Of a DNA stretch of 64,000 nucleotides, positions 37,742 to 42,951 are shown piece by piece (the stretch's first letter is position 1; every line of letters begins with the position of its first letter). The notes beneath the pieces were generated by a model. That model was not told the DNA's origin and did no database searches. It worked only from the letters and a program-made list of their open reading frames with translations. The translations under genes and the position numbers were made by a program. The DNA lies in the NCBI GenBank assembly GCA_041398345.1, contig JAWKUY010000004.1, positions 125,026 to 189,025 of the forward strand. Direction: 5' to 3'. This stretch comes from Hyphomonadaceae bacterium (lineage in GTDB: Bacteria; Pseudomonadota; Alphaproteobacteria; Caulobacterales; Aquidulcibacteraceae).

Positions 37742-38563
37742 TCAAGCCTTGCCCAGATCGCGCGAGCGCTGCGCGGCAGCCGCGACGGCGCGGCGCAGCA
37801 GCGGGCCCAGGCCATCGGCGCTGGCGAGAATATCGAGCGCGGCCTCTGTGGTGCCGCCGGGCGACATCACCTGCTTGCGCAAGACGCTGGCGCTCTCACC
37901 GGTCTCCAGCATCAGCGCGCCAGCGCCCGCCACCGTCGCGTTGGCCAGGCGCACGGCGGTTTCCTTGTCGAGCCCTTCTTGCTCGGCCGCGGCGGCGAGC
38001 ACCTCTGCGAGCAGGAACACATAGGCAGGGCCCGAGCCAGACACCGCCGTTACGGCATCCAGCAGCCGTTCCGCCGTCAGCGGTTCGACAGCGCCCAACG
38101 GCGCCAGCAATTGCTCCACCAGGCGCTTGTCTTGCTCCGTACATGCAGGAGACGCCACATAGGCGGTCACGCCGCGCCCGATGCGCGCAGGCGTGTTCGG
38201 CACGCAGCGCACCACGCGCTGAGCGCCCAGTTCGCGCGAAAGCGTTTCGATGGGAATGCCGGCCATCACAGAAAGGATGCGCGTATCGGGACCAACGAAG
38301 CGGCGCGCGCCGGCGGCGGCGGCGGCGAACATTTGCGGCTTCACCGCCAGCACCACGACGTCCGCGGGCCCCGGATCGGGGGGATTAAGCACCGCCCCGG
38401 CTGCATCAAGTTCGCGCTCAAGTTCGGGATCGAAGTTTGGCTCGACGACTGTGAGCGTCAGCCCCCCGCCCTTGCGTACAGCTTCAAGCCAGCCGCGCAC
38501 GAGCGCCCCGCCCATGGCGCCGGCGCCGACCAGTGCAATGGACGGGGCTTCAAGATCGCTCAC
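37742..38563 (-). CDS. proC: Pyrroline-5-carboxylate reductase
   Basis: GAGAMG, LAVKPQ, PNTPA, SGSGPAY, SPGGTT. Confidence 0.95.
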   Translation of the reverse strand: MSDLEAPSIALVGAGAMGGALVRGWLEAVRKGGGLTLTVVEPNFDPELERELDAAGAVLNPPDPGPADVVVLAVKPQMFAAAAAGARRFVGPDTRILSVMAGIPIETLSRELGAQRVVRCVPNTPARIGRGVTAYVASPACTEQDKRLVEQLLAPLGAVEPLTAERLLDAVTAVSGSGPAYVFLLAEVLAAAAEQEGLDKETAVRLANATVAGAGALMLETGESASVLRKQVMSPGGTTEAALDILASADGLGPLLRRAVAAAAQRSRDLGKA

Positions 38564-39066
38564 GCTTCTCCGCAGGTCTCGAACAGAGCGGCCTGCGATG
38601 CGCTCTCGGCCGACATGCCGCCGAGAATAAGGAAATGAAACGCCGGCTGGAAGCGCTCTGCTGCATCAAGTGCGGCCGCCAGCATGGCCTGAATTTCACC
38701 GATCGAGATTTCATCGCGCCCGATCATCGGCATGGCGTGACGGAAAATGATCGTGCCGTCATCGGACCACACGTCGAAATGCCCAAGCCACAGATTTTCG
38801 TTGATCAGCCCCGCCAGGCGCACGGCCTCGACGCGCCGTGACACCGGCGCCTGAATGTCGAAGCCCAGCGTAAACAGCAGCGCGGGCAGTTCGTGCCGGT
38901 ACGAGAAATAGCCGACCGTCTCGCCCCACGAGCATTTGAACGAGAAATGAACATCGCCGTCCTCGGCGCGTTCACACTGGAAGCGGTCGTCGGAGCCGAT
39001 CACGGCCTCCACCGTCTCCATTGGGTCGGACGGCGCCTCAGCCTCGTCGTCGAGCCACAGATCCAT
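38560..39066 (-). CDS. YbjN domain protein
   Basis: INENLWLGHFDVW motif; conserved neighbour of proC in alphaproteobacteria. Confidence 0.85.
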   Translation of the reverse strand: MDLWLDDEAEAPSDPMETVEAVIGSDDRFQCERAEDGDVHFSFKCSWGETVGYFSYRHELPALLFTLGFDIQAPVSRRVEAVRLAGLINENLWLGHFDVWSDDGTIIFRHAMPMIGRDEISIGEIQAMLAAALDAAERFQPAFHFLILGGMSAESASQAALFETCGEA

Positions 39067-39224
39067 GAGCATCCCCTTCACGCTCAGGGGCCGCCGCGCG
39101 GCCGGAAGATCGTCACGTTCGCCCTTGGGATGCGCGCTTTGCGTCAACGCGTTCGAATCAGACCCCTGCGACTAGGGAACGCGGGAAAAGTTACCGGGGC
39201 ATTTACGCGGGCGCCGCAACACTT

Positions 39225-39845
39225 TCATGGCGTGCAACGCACCACCGCCTTGGCCCATTCAGCACCGCCGAGCGGGCGCCCGGTCGAGGAGGCGCGGCGC
39301 AACTTCTTCAGTGCTTCAGCGCCGACGTCCGTCTCAAAGAACCCGCCGAACCCACGTGGAAATCGCCGCAAAAGCGGCGGTGTACGCACAAGTGCGTCGT
39401 CACGCCCTGACAAATGCGCGCGCACACTGGACCAAGGCCACTCCTCTGCACGCGTGACGAGCCCAGCACGCACCGGATTGAGCCCGACATAGCGGCTGGC
39501 CTGCACGAAATAATCCTCGTCCATCGGATAAGAAGCAAAGCGCCCCTGCCAAAGATAGCCGCGCCAGCCCTCGCGCTTGTTCACCTCGAACGTATAGCGC
39601 CAGTGCAGCGGGGCGATTGCTGCGCGCAGGCCGGCCTCGCCTTTTGGTGTGAGAATGAGGTGAACGTGATTGGGCATGAGGCAATAGCCCCAGCACTCAA
39701 CCTCAGCCTTCGCGCACCATTCCGACGCAAGTTGCAAGTAGCGCAGATAATCGGCCTCACTGAAGAACGTGCGCTGGCGGCGATTGCCGCGTTGCGTGAC
39801 ATGATGAGGCGTGTTGGGCGCCACGATCCTGGCCAATCGCGCCAT
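39225..39845 (-). mobile_element. Y1 HUH transposase (REP-associated tyrosine transposase / IS200-superfamily)
   Basis: MARLAR..HHVTQRGNRRQ, CLMPNHVH (HUH), LWQGRF, RYVGLNPVRAGL (catalytic Tyr), WPWSS; own GGAG RBS. Confidence 0.9.
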
Positions 39846-39867
39846 TTCGCTTTCTCCCGCGCACAAT

Positions 39868-39882
39868 GTACACGTTTTGTTC
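39868..39882 (-). promoter_or_regulatory. Alphaproteobacterial LexA (SOS) box candidate
   Basis: GAAC-AAAACGT-GTAC on the minus strand (GAAC-N7-GTAC), 22 nt upstream of the transposase ATG. Confidence 0.55.
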
Positions 39883-39924
39883 CTCGGCGCAACAGCGTTC
39901 AAAAAGTGTGTGTCACCCTTTCCC

Positions 39925-40487
39925 TCGTCGATGTTGTTAATCCCCCGCAGATAGTTCGCATCAATACCCGCAATGCTCGTTACATTAGGGTTGGCGAGCG
40001 CTGCCTGCAATTCGACCGCACCGAATATCCTTCCTGGGTCCGCGCTTCCAACGAGAGTAGCTATCGGACCACTGAGAGAACCCACGAAACGCTGAGACGC
40101 TTGCCCCCAAAATGACGACGGTGTGTGCCCGGCGAATGACGCACCCCCCAAAAGTTCCCGCTGCAGCGCAGAATTGCCGTCGACGGCATCCAACAGAGCA
40201 TCCTTAAATGCTTGACTCGAAAGCAGCCGTCCCAGCGGCGTATCGTCAATTATCGCAACCTGCGGATTGTTGGTCGCGATGAGTCTTGCAATTTCGTCCG
40301 ACCCAAAAGGGCGGCCACTCGCCGACGTTCGAAATTCACCGCTGTACAGCACCCCCACCCTTCCCGTTGGAGCTCTTGCATCTGTCTGTTGGACCAGCGA
40401 TTCCAACTCCGCCAAACGCTGCTCCGACGGCAGACCATTAATTCGATCAAGCTCATCCAGCGCCTGCTGAAACGTCAAATTTGGCAT
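39925..40487 (-). CDS. ADP-ribosyl cyclase/NAD glycohydrolase-like (CD38-like) toxin domain, C-terminally truncated and in frame with the transposase
   Basis: VLYSG, IIDDTPLG, FWGQASQRF and FGAVE occur in the same order as CD38 LLWS, TLEDTLLG, FWKTVSRRF and FGSVE; lower GC than flanks. Confidence 0.6.
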
Positions 40488-40507
40488 CGTTTATCCCAAG
40501 CAATCGG

Positions 40508-40966
40508 TCAGTCGGAAAAAATGACTTCAACAGGACCAAGAGGCCCGTTGTTTGCGCTGCCGTACGCGCCCAAAGCGCCTTCAATCAGATCGCGCTCTCG
40601 CTCTACAGCCGCCGCACCCACACAACCATTCACGGCGTGGACCTTGAAAACTTGGCGACACTCAAGGTGACCGTTCGAAGTGCGCCCACCGGTGTTCTCT
40701 ATCGACAGAGTCTCACCCCAAAACTGTATGGGGGCCTGCGTAGCATGCCTGAGAATAAAGCGCGAATAGCCGGGCCCGGTTGTTTCGTCGAACAACTCCC
40801 ATCCGCTATCAGGATCCCAAGTTCGCTTCATCTTATAGTCGGATTGGAATGCCACGATATCCTCGCTCGACACTGTTCTTGCAGGCATCTGCACAATCAA
40901 CTGCTGCACGCTTTCGCCACTGTAATCGCGACTCATGATGGCGCAACCATCACCTGCAACAAACAA
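40508..40966 (-). CDS. Hypothetical protein, candidate immunity protein
   Basis: 152-aa lower-GC ORF between hlyD' and the toxin-like ORF, same strand, 20 bp gap to the toxin-like ORF. Confidence 0.55.
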   Translation of the reverse strand: MFVAGDGCAIMSRDYSGESVQQLIVQMPARTVSSEDIVAFQSDYKMKRTWDPDSGWELFDETTGPGYSRFILRHATQAPIQFWGETLSIENTGGRTSNGHLECRQVFKVHAVNGCVGAAAVERERDLIEGALGAYGSANNGPLGPVEVIFSD

Positions 40967-41005
40967 TCAAATGCGCATTCTTCGCCGCCGCGCCACAGTT
41001 TCCCA

Positions 41006-41560
41006 TCACCTTTCCCTCCCCGCTTCTTCCACGCGCCTTTGCAAGGGCGAGAGCAGAAACTCGATGATGCGGCGGCGCCCGGTTTTGATTTCCGCCGTCA
41101 CCGCCAATCCCGCCGTCAGGGCTTGCGCGCGCCCATCGACGTTAATCGAGACGTCGGCCAACTCAATACGCGCGGGGAACACCAGGCCGGTATTTTCATC
41201 TTGCACGGCGTCATGGCTTAGAAACGCCAGCCTTCCGGCGACGACGCCGTAACGCGTGAACGGAAACGCCTCCAGTTTCACCCGCACGTCCTGGCCTTCG
41301 TGAACAAAGCCGGCGTCGCGGTTCAAGACATTGGCCTCCACCACCAAAGTCGAGCCGTCGGGCACGATCACCAGGATCGGATCGGCCGGGCGCAGCACAG
41401 CGCCAACCGTGTGCACCTGCAATTGCTGCACAGTGCCGGTCGCGGGCGCGGTCAACACGGTGCGGGCGTTGCGGTCCTGCGCAATGGTGAGCTCTTCGCG
41501 GCGCAGGCGCGCGGCCGCATCGGCCTCGTTGAAGGCGTCAAGCTCAGGCCGCTTTGGAGT
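41006..41560 (-). pseudogene. hlyD: 5'-truncated HlyD type I secretion periplasmic adaptor
   Basis: LTAPATGTVQQLQVHTVGAV, KLEAFPFTRYG, EIKTGRRRIIEFLLSP; only about 185 C-terminal codons, frame closed by TGA at 41570-41572, no TM anchor. Confidence 0.85.
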
Positions 41561-41562
41561 GC

Positions 41563-41823
41563 TCAGGCCTCAGTCAAAGTCTTCAGCGCGGCCTCCAAAG
41601 CCTCGACGCGCTCACGCAGCGCATCGGCCTCAGCGCGCGCGGCGGCGGCCAATTCCTTCGCCGCCTCGAACTCATCACGGCCGACCAGGTCCATTTCCGC
41701 GACAAAACGATCAGCCTGAGCGCGCATGAAGCTCTTGGCCTCGGCGGAGGCGCCCTGCGCCATCCCCATCGCCCCCGTCATCAAACGGGCCAGATCATCG
41801 AACACCGAGCTTGTCGTTTGCAT
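41563..41823 (-). CDS. ubiK: Accessory factor UbiK family protein
   Basis: MQTTSSVFDDLARL..MDLVGRDEFEA..LRERVEALE; divergent from lgt. Confidence 0.85.
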   Translation of the reverse strand: MQTTSSVFDDLARLMTGAMGMAQGASAEAKSFMRAQADRFVAEMDLVGRDEFEAAKELAAAARAEADALRERVEALEAALKTLTEA

Positions 41824-41916
41824 GTGGACCGATCCTTTGCGCCTACTTAGAAAGCGCCGCGGGGCCGGGCAATGCGGCCAATCAGCTGAAGGTGGGCAAG
41901 CGTGATCGAAGCAGCC

Positions 41917-42951
41917 ATGCAATTCCCCAATCTCGATCCCTCGGCGCTGACGCTGCCCGGCTTTGAGCTCTTTGGCGCGCATCTGGGCCCGTTTCACCTG
42001 CGCTGGTACGCGCTCGCTTACATTGCGGGCCTGGTGTTGGGCTGGCGCTGGATGGTGTGGCTGATCCGGCGCGACAGCTTGTGGGCGCCCGGACGCCCTG
42101 CGATGAGCGTGCCCCAGGCTGACGACTTCCTGTTCTGGGCGACGCTGGGCGTCATCCTGGGCGGGCGCGTCGGTTACGTGCTCTTCTACAAGCCCGACAT
42201 GATCTGGAAGCATCCCGCCGAGCTCATCCAGATCTGGCAGGGCGGCATGAGCTTCCATGGCGGGCTCATCGGGGTGGCGCTCGCGGCGCTCTGGTTCACG
42301 CGCCAAAAGCACGTCAACGAAGAGCAATACGCCAAGCTGGCCGCCAAACACGCTGTTGAAAAAGCCCCTGCTGGAGAAGGCGGCAAGTACGAACGCTTCG
42401 GCGAGGGCAAATGGATTTTGAAAACCGAAGCCGAAGCCGCGCGCGAAAAATCGCGCAGCGACAGCGTTGACCTTTTGCGCCTGGGCGATCTCGCCGCGGC
42501 GGCGGCGCCGCTCGGGCTCTTCTTCGGACGCATCGCCAATTTCATCAACGGCGAGCTGTGGGGCCGCGTCACCGGCGGCCCGTTCGGCATGATCTTCTGC
42601 AATGACCGCATCATCGCGCAGAACGGCTTTTGCCCGGCGGGCGATGAACCGCGCTACCCCAGCCAATTGTTCGAAGCGGCGCTCGAAGGGATTGCGCTGT
42701 TCACCATCATCAACATCGCCACGCTCAAGTTCGATACGCTGCGCCGGCCCGGCATGAATGTTGGCATTTTCCTGGTGTGCTACGGGCTCTTCCGCGCCAT
42801 CTTGGAAACCGTGCGCGAGCCCGATGCGCACATGCCCGAAGCGCTGCGCGGAATTATCACCATGGGCATGCTGCTCTCCATCCCGATGATCATCGCCGGC
42901 GCCTGGCTCATCTACCGCGCGCTGAAGCGCCCGAAACTGGCCGCGGCGTGA
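41917..42951 (+). CDS. lgt: Prolipoprotein diacylglyceryl transferase
   Basis: RWYALAY, GGRVGYVLFY, GGMSFHGG, GRIANFINGELWGR, PSQLFEA. Confidence 0.95.
   Translation: MQFPNLDPSALTLPGFELFGAHLGPFHLRWYALAYIAGLVLGWRWMVWLIRRDSLWAPGRPAMSVPQADDFLFWATLGVILGGRVGYVLFYKPDMIWKHPAELIQIWQGGMSFHGGLIGVALAALWFTRQKHVNEEQYAKLAAKHAVEKAPAGEGGKYERFGEGKWILKTEAEAAREKSRSDSVDLLRLGDLAAAAAPLGLFFGRIANFINGELWGRVTGGPFGMIFCNDRIIAQNGFCPAGDEPRYPSQLFEAALEGIALFTIINIATLKFDTLRRPGMNVGIFLVCYGLFRAILETVREPDAHMPEALRGIITMGMLLSIPMIIAGAWLIYRALKRPKLAAA

Follow-up and report, generated by a model that had tools for sequence, protein, structure and literature searches.

The window analysed here is a 64,000-nucleotide stretch of DNA from a Hyphomonadaceae bacterium (GenBank assembly GCA_041398345.1, contig JAWKUY010000004.1, positions 125,026 to 189,025 of the forward strand). 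At 39225..40487 on its minus strand lies a chimeric open reading frame (ORF) of 420 codons, in which a truncated ADP-ribosyl cyclase (ARC) gene is joined, with a repetitive extragenic palindrome (REP) and a leader as linker, to a RAYT, a transposase gene of the Y1 type. The order on the minus strand is ubiK-like gene, 5'-truncated hlyD, a small gene, the truncated ARC gene (ARC'), REP, leader, RAYT, ybjN and proC. The 420-residue ORF is, in our judgement, probably a by-product of rearrangement at the REP–RAYT boundary whose working parts are separate, and the locus is most likely an orphan toxin–immunity cassette truncated at that boundary.

An in-frame junction at a REP hairpin

Translation of 39225..40487 gives 420 residues with zero internal stops, as a preliminary description made from the letters of this DNA had stated. 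Residues 1–188 are the ARC domain and residues 215–420 the Y1 transposase; the 26-residue linker between them is translated REP plus conserved RAYT leader. Comparison of the window DNA with the RAYT loci of seven same-genus orthologues placed the RAYT homology edge at 39923/39924, directly after ARC codon 188. From this edge homology extends to 39239, and the flank upstream of it is different in every genome. The junction coincides with the edge of the REP hairpin (39900–39923) and lies past the final conserved ARC motif, NPNVTxIxGI (residues 166–175), which bears out the earlier placement at about 39925, just past the last conserved motif. The join is also present in an independent assembly: over 39781–40075 the window is matched with 0 differences by a Logan contig of a public metagenome run on wastewater, thus indicating that there is no stop or break at the junction, and this run may be the source sample of the genome assembly.

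The RAYT coding sequence (39225..39845, minus strand; 206 residues) is present in one copy in the 2.95-Mb assembly. It matches the Pfam family Y1_Tnp (PF01797, E 3e-10), and its best NCBIfam match, REP_Tyr_transpos, scores 65.6 bits, under the cutoff of 80. Alignment with the E. coli TnpA-REP (PDB 4ER8, E 1e-5) puts the HUH motif (HVH) and the catalytic tyrosine (RYVGLNP) in register. Its orthologues in the seven same-genus genomes are 74–88% identical at the protein level. By its single copy, the HUH and tyrosine motifs aligned to TnpA-REP and the REPIN pairs described below, the Y1 protein is a true RAYT. Its internal methionine is M215, with the first base of the ATG at 39845 and GGGAGA ahead of it, in agreement with the ribosome-binding site (RBS) and start codon previously assigned to it. 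The leader, TTGCG/A..GAACAAAACGTGTACATT..GGAG..ATG (39846..39899, minus strand), is common to all eight aligned orthologues and is probably the RAYT's own promoter and RBS.

The REP hairpin GGAAAGGGTGACACACACTTTTT (39900..39923, minus strand) forms the exact fusion junction. Its core, GGTGACACACAC at 39906–39917, consists of ACACA enclosed by a GTG/CAC stem, and the pairs outside it vary. Of the eight orthologous RAYTs aligned, that of this genome included, six have the hairpin upstream (five of the seven in relatives). In relatives the core occurs as inverted pairs 55–57 bp apart, the REPIN form, and such pairs flank the RAYT in G026, G028 and G021. Copy numbers of the motif are 51 in G028, 12 in G021, 5 in G029, 4 in G026 and 0 in G015, which has a variant REP; in five same-genus genomes that do not carry this RAYT the count is 0. 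Folding of the REP/leader strand is unremarkable (z = -0.8), so the assignment of the hairpin rests on the comparative pattern rather than on energy.

Two of the three frames from the REP to the ATG are closed, the RAYT frame being the exception. An in-frame join is therefore expected about once in three events, which is no excess over chance. The preliminary description had itself offered a chance in-frame insertion, at roughly 1 in 3, as one of two readings, and chance is the alternative that the evidence favours. Its other reading was a functional chimera: a cytoplasmic ARC NAD glycohydrolase (NADase) tethered to a single-stranded-DNA-binding HUH protein and acting as an addiction or abortive-infection module. 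In such a chimera the toxin would be curbed by the immunity protein encoded upstream. The frame is indeed open throughout, the ARC fold and its catalytic glutamate are intact and an intact immunity-like gene lies next to it (see below); moreover, defence systems commonly use NAD-depleting effectors. We nevertheless regard such a chimera as very unlikely, since its linker is a REP hairpin plus a conserved RAYT leader, the RAYT retains its own start, the join itself calls for no more than chance, the fusion was found in this genome only and truncated genes of unrelated kinds are fused to, or lie next to, orthologous RAYTs.

The search for the same fusion in independent genomes, which the preliminary description had proposed as a check, returned no second case. 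With the whole chimera as query there was no ARC match in 60 relatives. A junction-spanning segment searched against 5.8 billion proteins matched RAYTs only, and no two-half protein was among the best matches; those with longer coverage (P0157 and P0158) are read-throughs of the RAYT's own leader or tandem RAYT pieces. Other in-frame partners do occur: in P0209 (413 residues, nine member sequences) a RAYT is joined to a 200-residue N-terminal part of no known kind with a signal-like start, and in P0168 to the C-terminal part of a kinase/pyrophosphorylase. The presence in the database of RAYT chimeras with unrelated partners indicates that such read-throughs are not rare. PADLOC (2023 library) gave no match for the fusion, ARC' or the small gene. 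The fusion itself is probably an accident and no pointer to a new NADase–transposase machine.

A CD38-like toxin domain without its export region

ARC' comprises codons 1–188 (39924..40487, minus strand) and is a CD38-like ADP-ribosyl cyclase/NADase toxin gene whose fold is complete and whose C-terminal export part is gone. For this N-terminal half, Pfam gave nothing above threshold (Rib_hydrolayse, PF02267, reached E 0.24 and 11.2 bits against a cutoff of 25), and neither did NCBIfam or PADLOC. A profile of 41 homologues searched against the PDB matched the bacterial toxins Tac1 (9ouf, E 1.3e-12) and Pantoea ARCtox (9ro8, E 1.6e-12), as well as the Aplysia cyclase (1lbe, E 3e-5) and, weakly, CD38. 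ARC' belongs to a divergent ARC subfamily that is reached by profile and fold only.

An AlphaFold2 model of ARC' has a predicted local distance difference test score (pLDDT) of 92. Nearly all of its top 50 Foldseek matches are CD38, Aplysia cyclase or bacterial ARC toxins, and the rest are the RDTND NADase domain of the Vibrio vulnificus MARTX toxin. VIA-align superposed residues 1–178 of the model on Tac1 with Z 10.3 (131/148 residues, root-mean-square deviation 3.2), and gave Z values of 10.1 to 9ro8 and 8.9 to CD38. Across the 41 homologues S131, G140 and E159 are invariant and W127 is nearly so. W127 and S131 belong to the W..(A)S.RF motif, and E159 is the counterpart of the essential CD38 E226. 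In the hidden Markov model (HMM) alignment E159 falls on E573 of Tac1, the only residue without which that toxin has no activity (PMC12356396), and W127 on Tac1 W540. The second acidic residue, which drives hydrolysis of cADPR and corresponds to CD38 E146 and Tac1 E516, is probably D81 or D82: both (IIDDT) lie in the right segment, the HMM puts E516 in an adjacent insertion, and the register is ambiguous. Solved minimal ARC toxin domains stop 12–14 residues past the NVT..I.D motif and ARC' retains 12 native residues there, which indicates that the catalytic domain is whole. Profile, fold and the 4ER8 alignment therefore agree with the first identification of the two halves as an ARC-like NADase and a RAYT-like Y1 transposase, and with the statement that the enzyme domain is complete.

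The closest homologue, P0003 (61% identity), is encoded by a complete 323-residue gene. ARC' falls short of it by 134 residues, and of the next homologue (1462 residues, with RTX repeats) by more than 1200. With at least 134 residues gone, whatever directs export is gone too. The preliminary description, in which only a presumed secretion tail is lost, understated the extent.

An exhaustive protein search found 307 homologues of this N-terminal ARC family, with lengths of 139–4651 residues; in nearly all of the 150 listed of these 307 the domain lies at residues ~2–190. No Pfam model reaches the family, which has at least 307 proteins. Long homologues carry C-terminal RTX repeats (P0009, P0011 and P0015) and two others a C-terminal XVIPCD, the effector signal of Xanthomonas-type type IV secretion systems (T4SSs; P0006 and P0025), thus indicating that the export signals are C-terminal and hence lost in ARC'. 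From these C-termini, export of the family would be by a type I secretion system (T1SS) or a Xanthomonas-type T4SS, and neither these routes nor an N-terminal ARC domain with such signals is listed for bacterial ARC toxins by Zhang et al. 2012 (PMC3482391), PMC12356396 or PMC12605009. A class-wide search with the ARC profile gave six partial matches in 400 genomes, so the family is rare there. The 41-row alignment offers no conserved stretch that would serve as a search pattern. Queried against genome contigs, the single protein had no relative, and the one locus matched by a five-row alignment, in a Campylobacter bin, is distant.

A conserved small gene upstream of ARC'

Directly upstream of ARC' lies a candidate immunity gene (40508..40855, minus strand) that encodes 115 residues from the GTG at 40855. 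This start is chosen because the homologous start lies there with AGGA upstream, and the 152-residue ORF that begins at 40966 is probably an over-extension of the same gene. The ORF 40508..40966 in the preliminary description thus corresponds to a conserved upstream partner of this ARC family, with a start that is likely too early.

Small genes whose products begin with MAF are found directly upstream of N-terminal ARC genes at four other loci: L029 (273–608), L028 (5581–5943), L060 (828–1256) and L061 (2537–2983). Including the window, the five products have 111–148 residues and share the MAF start and a C-terminal ..EAL.AYG.. motif; the window protein is 42% identical to that of L029 and 32% to that of L028. 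At L060, T1SS genes follow the pair. The small gene has no Pfam, NCBIfam or PADLOC family and no match to Imm74 or Imm63, and a protein-atlas search returned eukaryotic hypothetical look-alikes and structural rows with TM of ~0.5–0.6 and no common family. The conserved position upstream of ARC genes makes it likely that the small protein is the immunity partner of the ARC protein. Complex prediction for the two gave 0.67, 0.02 and 0.47 in three runs (median 0.47) with 0% inter-run agreement; the best control reached 0.00, and the pLDDT of the partner was at least 71. By calibration, a pass at or below 0.60 is wrong in the majority of cases, save for pairings that were likely beforehand.

A foreign block between ubiK and ybjN

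Instead of an insertion into a toxin gene, as had been supposed, the comparison with relatives reveals one foreign block that carries all of these features. It is flanked by a ubiK-like gene on the left (41563..41823, minus strand; BMFP, PF04380, E 5e-22) and by ybjN on the right (38560..39147, minus strand; PF10722), both native to the site. The distance from lgt to ybjN is ~400–640 bp in 23 of 29 same-genus relatives and 2755 bp here; in the other six, lgt is not within the fetched flank. In the seven relatives where a mis-framed query detected ubiK, the gene lies between lgt and ybjN. Homology to the relatives' empty sites resumes at ~41576 and ~39167–39181, and the GC content over the small gene and ARC' is 0.55–0.58 compared with 0.65–0.70 in the flanks. 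Spacing, empty sites and GC drop together indicate that a block of ~2.3 kb is foreign to the ubiK/ybjN site. At its left edge (41543–41563) neither a REP nor microhomology with the hlyD breakpoint was found.

The block begins with a 5'-truncated gene for a T1SS membrane-fusion protein, hlyD (41006..41543, minus strand), of which the last 179 codons and the stop remain (PF13437, HlyD_3, E 4.5e-17). This fragment is identical at 533 of 545 positions to the 3' end of the full-length hlyD carried by another contig of the assembly, C13 (L027:10193–10737). The first ~475 bp are 100% identical; all differences are synonymous and lie in the last ~65 bp, and past the stop codon the two loci are unrelated. 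The drop in identity is a sharp breakpoint of recombination or gene conversion. On C13 the full-length gene follows a C39-peptidase ABC exporter, with which it forms a T1SS pair. An intact form of the cassette is found on L029, a metagenomic contig of 1.6 kb that carries an hlyD end, a gene for 111 residues and the complete 323-residue ARC gene that is 61% identical to ARC'.

Downstream of the full-length hlyD on C13 (L027 10879–16000) there is a lipoprotein-like ORF of 231 residues that belongs to no family. In the 3 kb after it, the listed ORFs resemble wrong-frame readings of a repeat-rich, possibly RTX, gene.

A metatranscriptome contig (41442–41658) joins the ubiK stop to the start of the hlyD fragment, which hints that transcription can enter the block from the ubiK side; it is a single contig of low depth, and DNA carry-over is possible. 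A consensus scan of 38900–42000 gave no promoter-like site, with nothing resembling a sigma-70 site in the RAYT leader either, and a corresponding terminator scan of the same interval gave two terminator-like sites, below the shuffled expectation.

The block also bears on the possibility of an assembly artefact, namely a mis-join in a metagenome bin at the exact hlyD repeat. The bin has 30 contigs, the ~475 bp shared with C13 are identical throughout and the Logan contigs end at the repeat edge, 41543. The repeat is, however, 1.1 kb from the fusion junction, which the separate contig over 39781–40075 spans without a difference, while further Logan contigs bridge 40811–41099 and, from an RNA library, 41442–41658. 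Core synteny on both sides (lgt–ubiK and ybjN–proC) moreover fits only the assembly as given. We therefore consider a mis-join exceedingly improbable.

Variable cargo beside orthologous RAYTs

Orthologous RAYTs in the genus have different neighbours. In G028, G029 and G015 (L017, L018 and L020) the RAYT module lies beside a quinone oxidoreductase gene, a site that is empty in the present genome (C21:12788–12910); the module thus occupies two loci within the genus. Upstream of the REP–RAYT unit, G029 has an hlyD fragment, three genes that were judged by eye to encode putative lipoproteins (no Pfam match) and a gene for an RTX protein (L018 7355–11600). In G014 the hlyD fragment is followed by a gene of the Imm11 family (PF07791, E 1.4e-7; L016 428–4976). 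G028 has three ORFs without assignment there, with an overlap, in a different frame, between the last one and the REP.

G026 has a REPIN-split hlyD fragment followed only by a frameshifted immunity-like gene (L015 6970–8648). Its REPINs lie at L015 6970–7038, 7230–7297 and 8581–8648, one of them inside the hlyD fragment. The immunity-like gene (L015 7533–7862) is 27% identical to the small gene of the window (E 0.08), with which it shares its position and the GWEL and ..EA.SAYG.. motifs; the frameshift, at a T run, may mark a pseudogene or a homopolymer sequencing error. The hlyD fragments of G026, G014 and G029 have different truncation points, with the truncated 5' end at or near a REP, and no close full-length hlyD was found in these three genomes, where the best is 31–44% identical. 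Variable cargo and an hlyD remnant beside orthologous RAYTs suggest that the RAYT travels with T1SS-type cargo and that the REP is a cut point of neighbouring genes; the read-through from ARC' would be one outcome of that process.

The neighbourhood of G026 bears on a further explanation, in which the fusion is irrelevant and cytoplasmic ARC', with or without the RAYT tail, is toxic but neutralized by the immunity protein, so that the pair stabilizes the block and the RAYT in it by post-segregational killing in the manner of a toxin–antitoxin system. In its favour, neither gene is damaged, ARC' has its catalytic residues and immunity gene before toxin gene is the conserved order; the RNA-library contig runs from ubiK into the block; and in E. 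coli ARC activity is toxic even at a weak level (PMC12356396). Yet this explanation assumes that ARC' is expressed and that it folds without its C-terminal part, and it takes the immunity function from a conserved position and a weak complex prediction. In G026, furthermore, an immunity-like gene alone precedes the REP–RAYT unit, so the module can be kept without the toxin piece. Retention of this kind is unlikely, in our view, although considerably less so than a functional chimera.

Origin of the read-through

For the by-product of rearrangement that we favour, we infer the following course of events. The ancestor would have been a T1SS cargo operon of hlyD, a small immunity gene and an ARC toxin gene, the toxin combining an N-terminal NAD(P)+ glycohydrolase/cyclase domain with a C-terminal export region. 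A fragment of this operon, from mid-hlyD to toxin codon 188, would have come to abut the REP hairpin of the RAYT, where the cut toxin frame happened to coincide with the sole open frame through REP and leader and would so run into the RAYT. The RAYT would have its own expression signals in the conserved leader, RBS and ATG. The immunity gene may have been kept as an orphan that guards against the ARC toxins of neighbours and neutralizes any ARC' made. ARC' is predicted to be a remnant that is still competent in catalysis but has lost its export; if it is made, the RAYT would be its accidental tail.

Several observations weigh against this account. The genome is a metagenome bin of 2.95 Mb that is 85% complete and in 30 contigs, and the supporting Logan contigs all come from one study, possibly that of the source sample. 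The sole RNA-library contig found spans the junction of ubiK and the hlyD fragment (41442–41658) and not the fusion, and is silent on translation of the chimera. In this genome the inserted block has no outer REPs. Finally, ARC' and the small gene have no stop and no frameshift and the catalytic residues are intact, where a long-dead remnant should decay; yet 475 bp of the hlyD fragment match the resident gene at 100% identity, so the intact frames may instead reflect a recent event.

Relation to known systems

ARC toxins, REPIN–RAYT systems and orphan toxin–immunity cassettes are all already known. Tac1 of Streptococcus parasanguinis (9ouf; PMC12356396) and ARCtox of Pantoea ananatis (9ro8; PMC12605009) share with ARC' the fold, the catalytic glutamate and tryptophan and an adjacent small partner gene, and the Tox-ARC of Zhang et al. 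2012 (PMC3482391) is the same kind of toxin. In the described ARC toxins, however, the domain is at the C-terminus, whereas in the present family it is at the N-terminus. Described ARC toxins use type V secretion (T5SS/CDI, where CDI is contact-dependent inhibition), type VI (T6SS) or type VII (T7SS) systems, to which Zhang et al. 2012 add type II (PMC3482391), while relatives of ARC' have C-terminal RTX or XVIPCD regions, with T1SS genes as neighbours. Immunity described so far is of the Imm74 or Imm63 family; the partner gene of ARC' is upstream and belongs to no Pfam family. ARC' further differs from described bacterial ARC toxins in being cut after the catalytic domain. The locus documents a subfamily of CD38-like NADase toxins with an N-terminal enzyme, C-terminal export signals and a previously unnamed upstream partner.

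CDI/Rhs orphan modules are displaced cassettes: a conserved upstream piece, an undeliverable toxin part and an immunity gene that is still intact. The locus resembles them in its hlyD 3' fragment, its ARC' without a C-terminal part and its intact gene for 115 residues, and also in the signs of homologous exchange with the main locus (475 bp at 100% identity, then a breakpoint). In contrast to these orphans, it is a neighbour of the toxin gene, hlyD, whose 3' end provides the conserved handle, and not the toxin gene itself; ARC' has its 5' end and lacks the 3' end, the delivery signals being C-terminal; and the cassette is not immediately downstream of the main locus but on the contig of the window (C4) between ubiK and ybjN, with the full T1SS genes on C13. 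The REP–RAYT boundary is here a breakpoint that truncates neighbouring genes, and the recurrent hlyD 3' fragments beside variable toxin or immunity cargo suggest how T1SS effector cassettes are exchanged.

A broader proposal, which we put forward only tentatively and hold to be more doubtful than not, is that in this genus a movable module of T1SS cargo (toxins, immunity genes and RTX proteins) is delimited by the RAYT and its REPs and tagged with a 3' fragment of hlyD, that the ARC–RAYT read-through is a frozen intermediate, and that N-terminal ARC toxins with their MAF... partner are a new toxin–immunity family delivered by T1SS or Xanthomonas-type T4SS. The hlyD fragment would then be an upstream homology arm for cassette swaps with an expressed T1SS locus, and the module a T1SS counterpart of the CDI/Rhs orphan cassettes that is moved or rearranged at REP sites.

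Insertion of an IS200/IS605 element was also considered and rejected, since the transposase gene is single-copy, there is no right end and the block contains non-IS genes. As in IS200/IS605 insertion sequences, the protein is of the Y1/HUH superfamily (PF01797) and there is a hairpin at the left boundary. Unlike them, it is present once and without tnpB, the repeats are REPINs rather than IS ends and a recognisable right-end hairpin is absent, with homology ending at 39239 inside the 3' end of the RAYT.

The locus also resembles REPIN–RAYT systems (Bertels and Rainey 2011, PMC3116915; Bertels et al. 2017, PMC5581495; TnpA-REP, 4ER8), which likewise have a single-copy Y1/HUH transposase flanked by REP hairpins, and the RAYT-bearing relatives share with them the same REP genome-wide as inverted doublets. 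The usual picture of RAYTs is one of vertical inheritance with no cargo, whereas here the RAYT occupies two loci in one genus, has cargo of the toxin/immunity type and at several loci is accompanied by an hlyD fragment. The present genome departs from these systems in having three single REPs and no doublets. Its two REP-core copies outside the window, at C5:85321 and C18:35430, are singletons that have the same AAAGGTGACACACACTT context.

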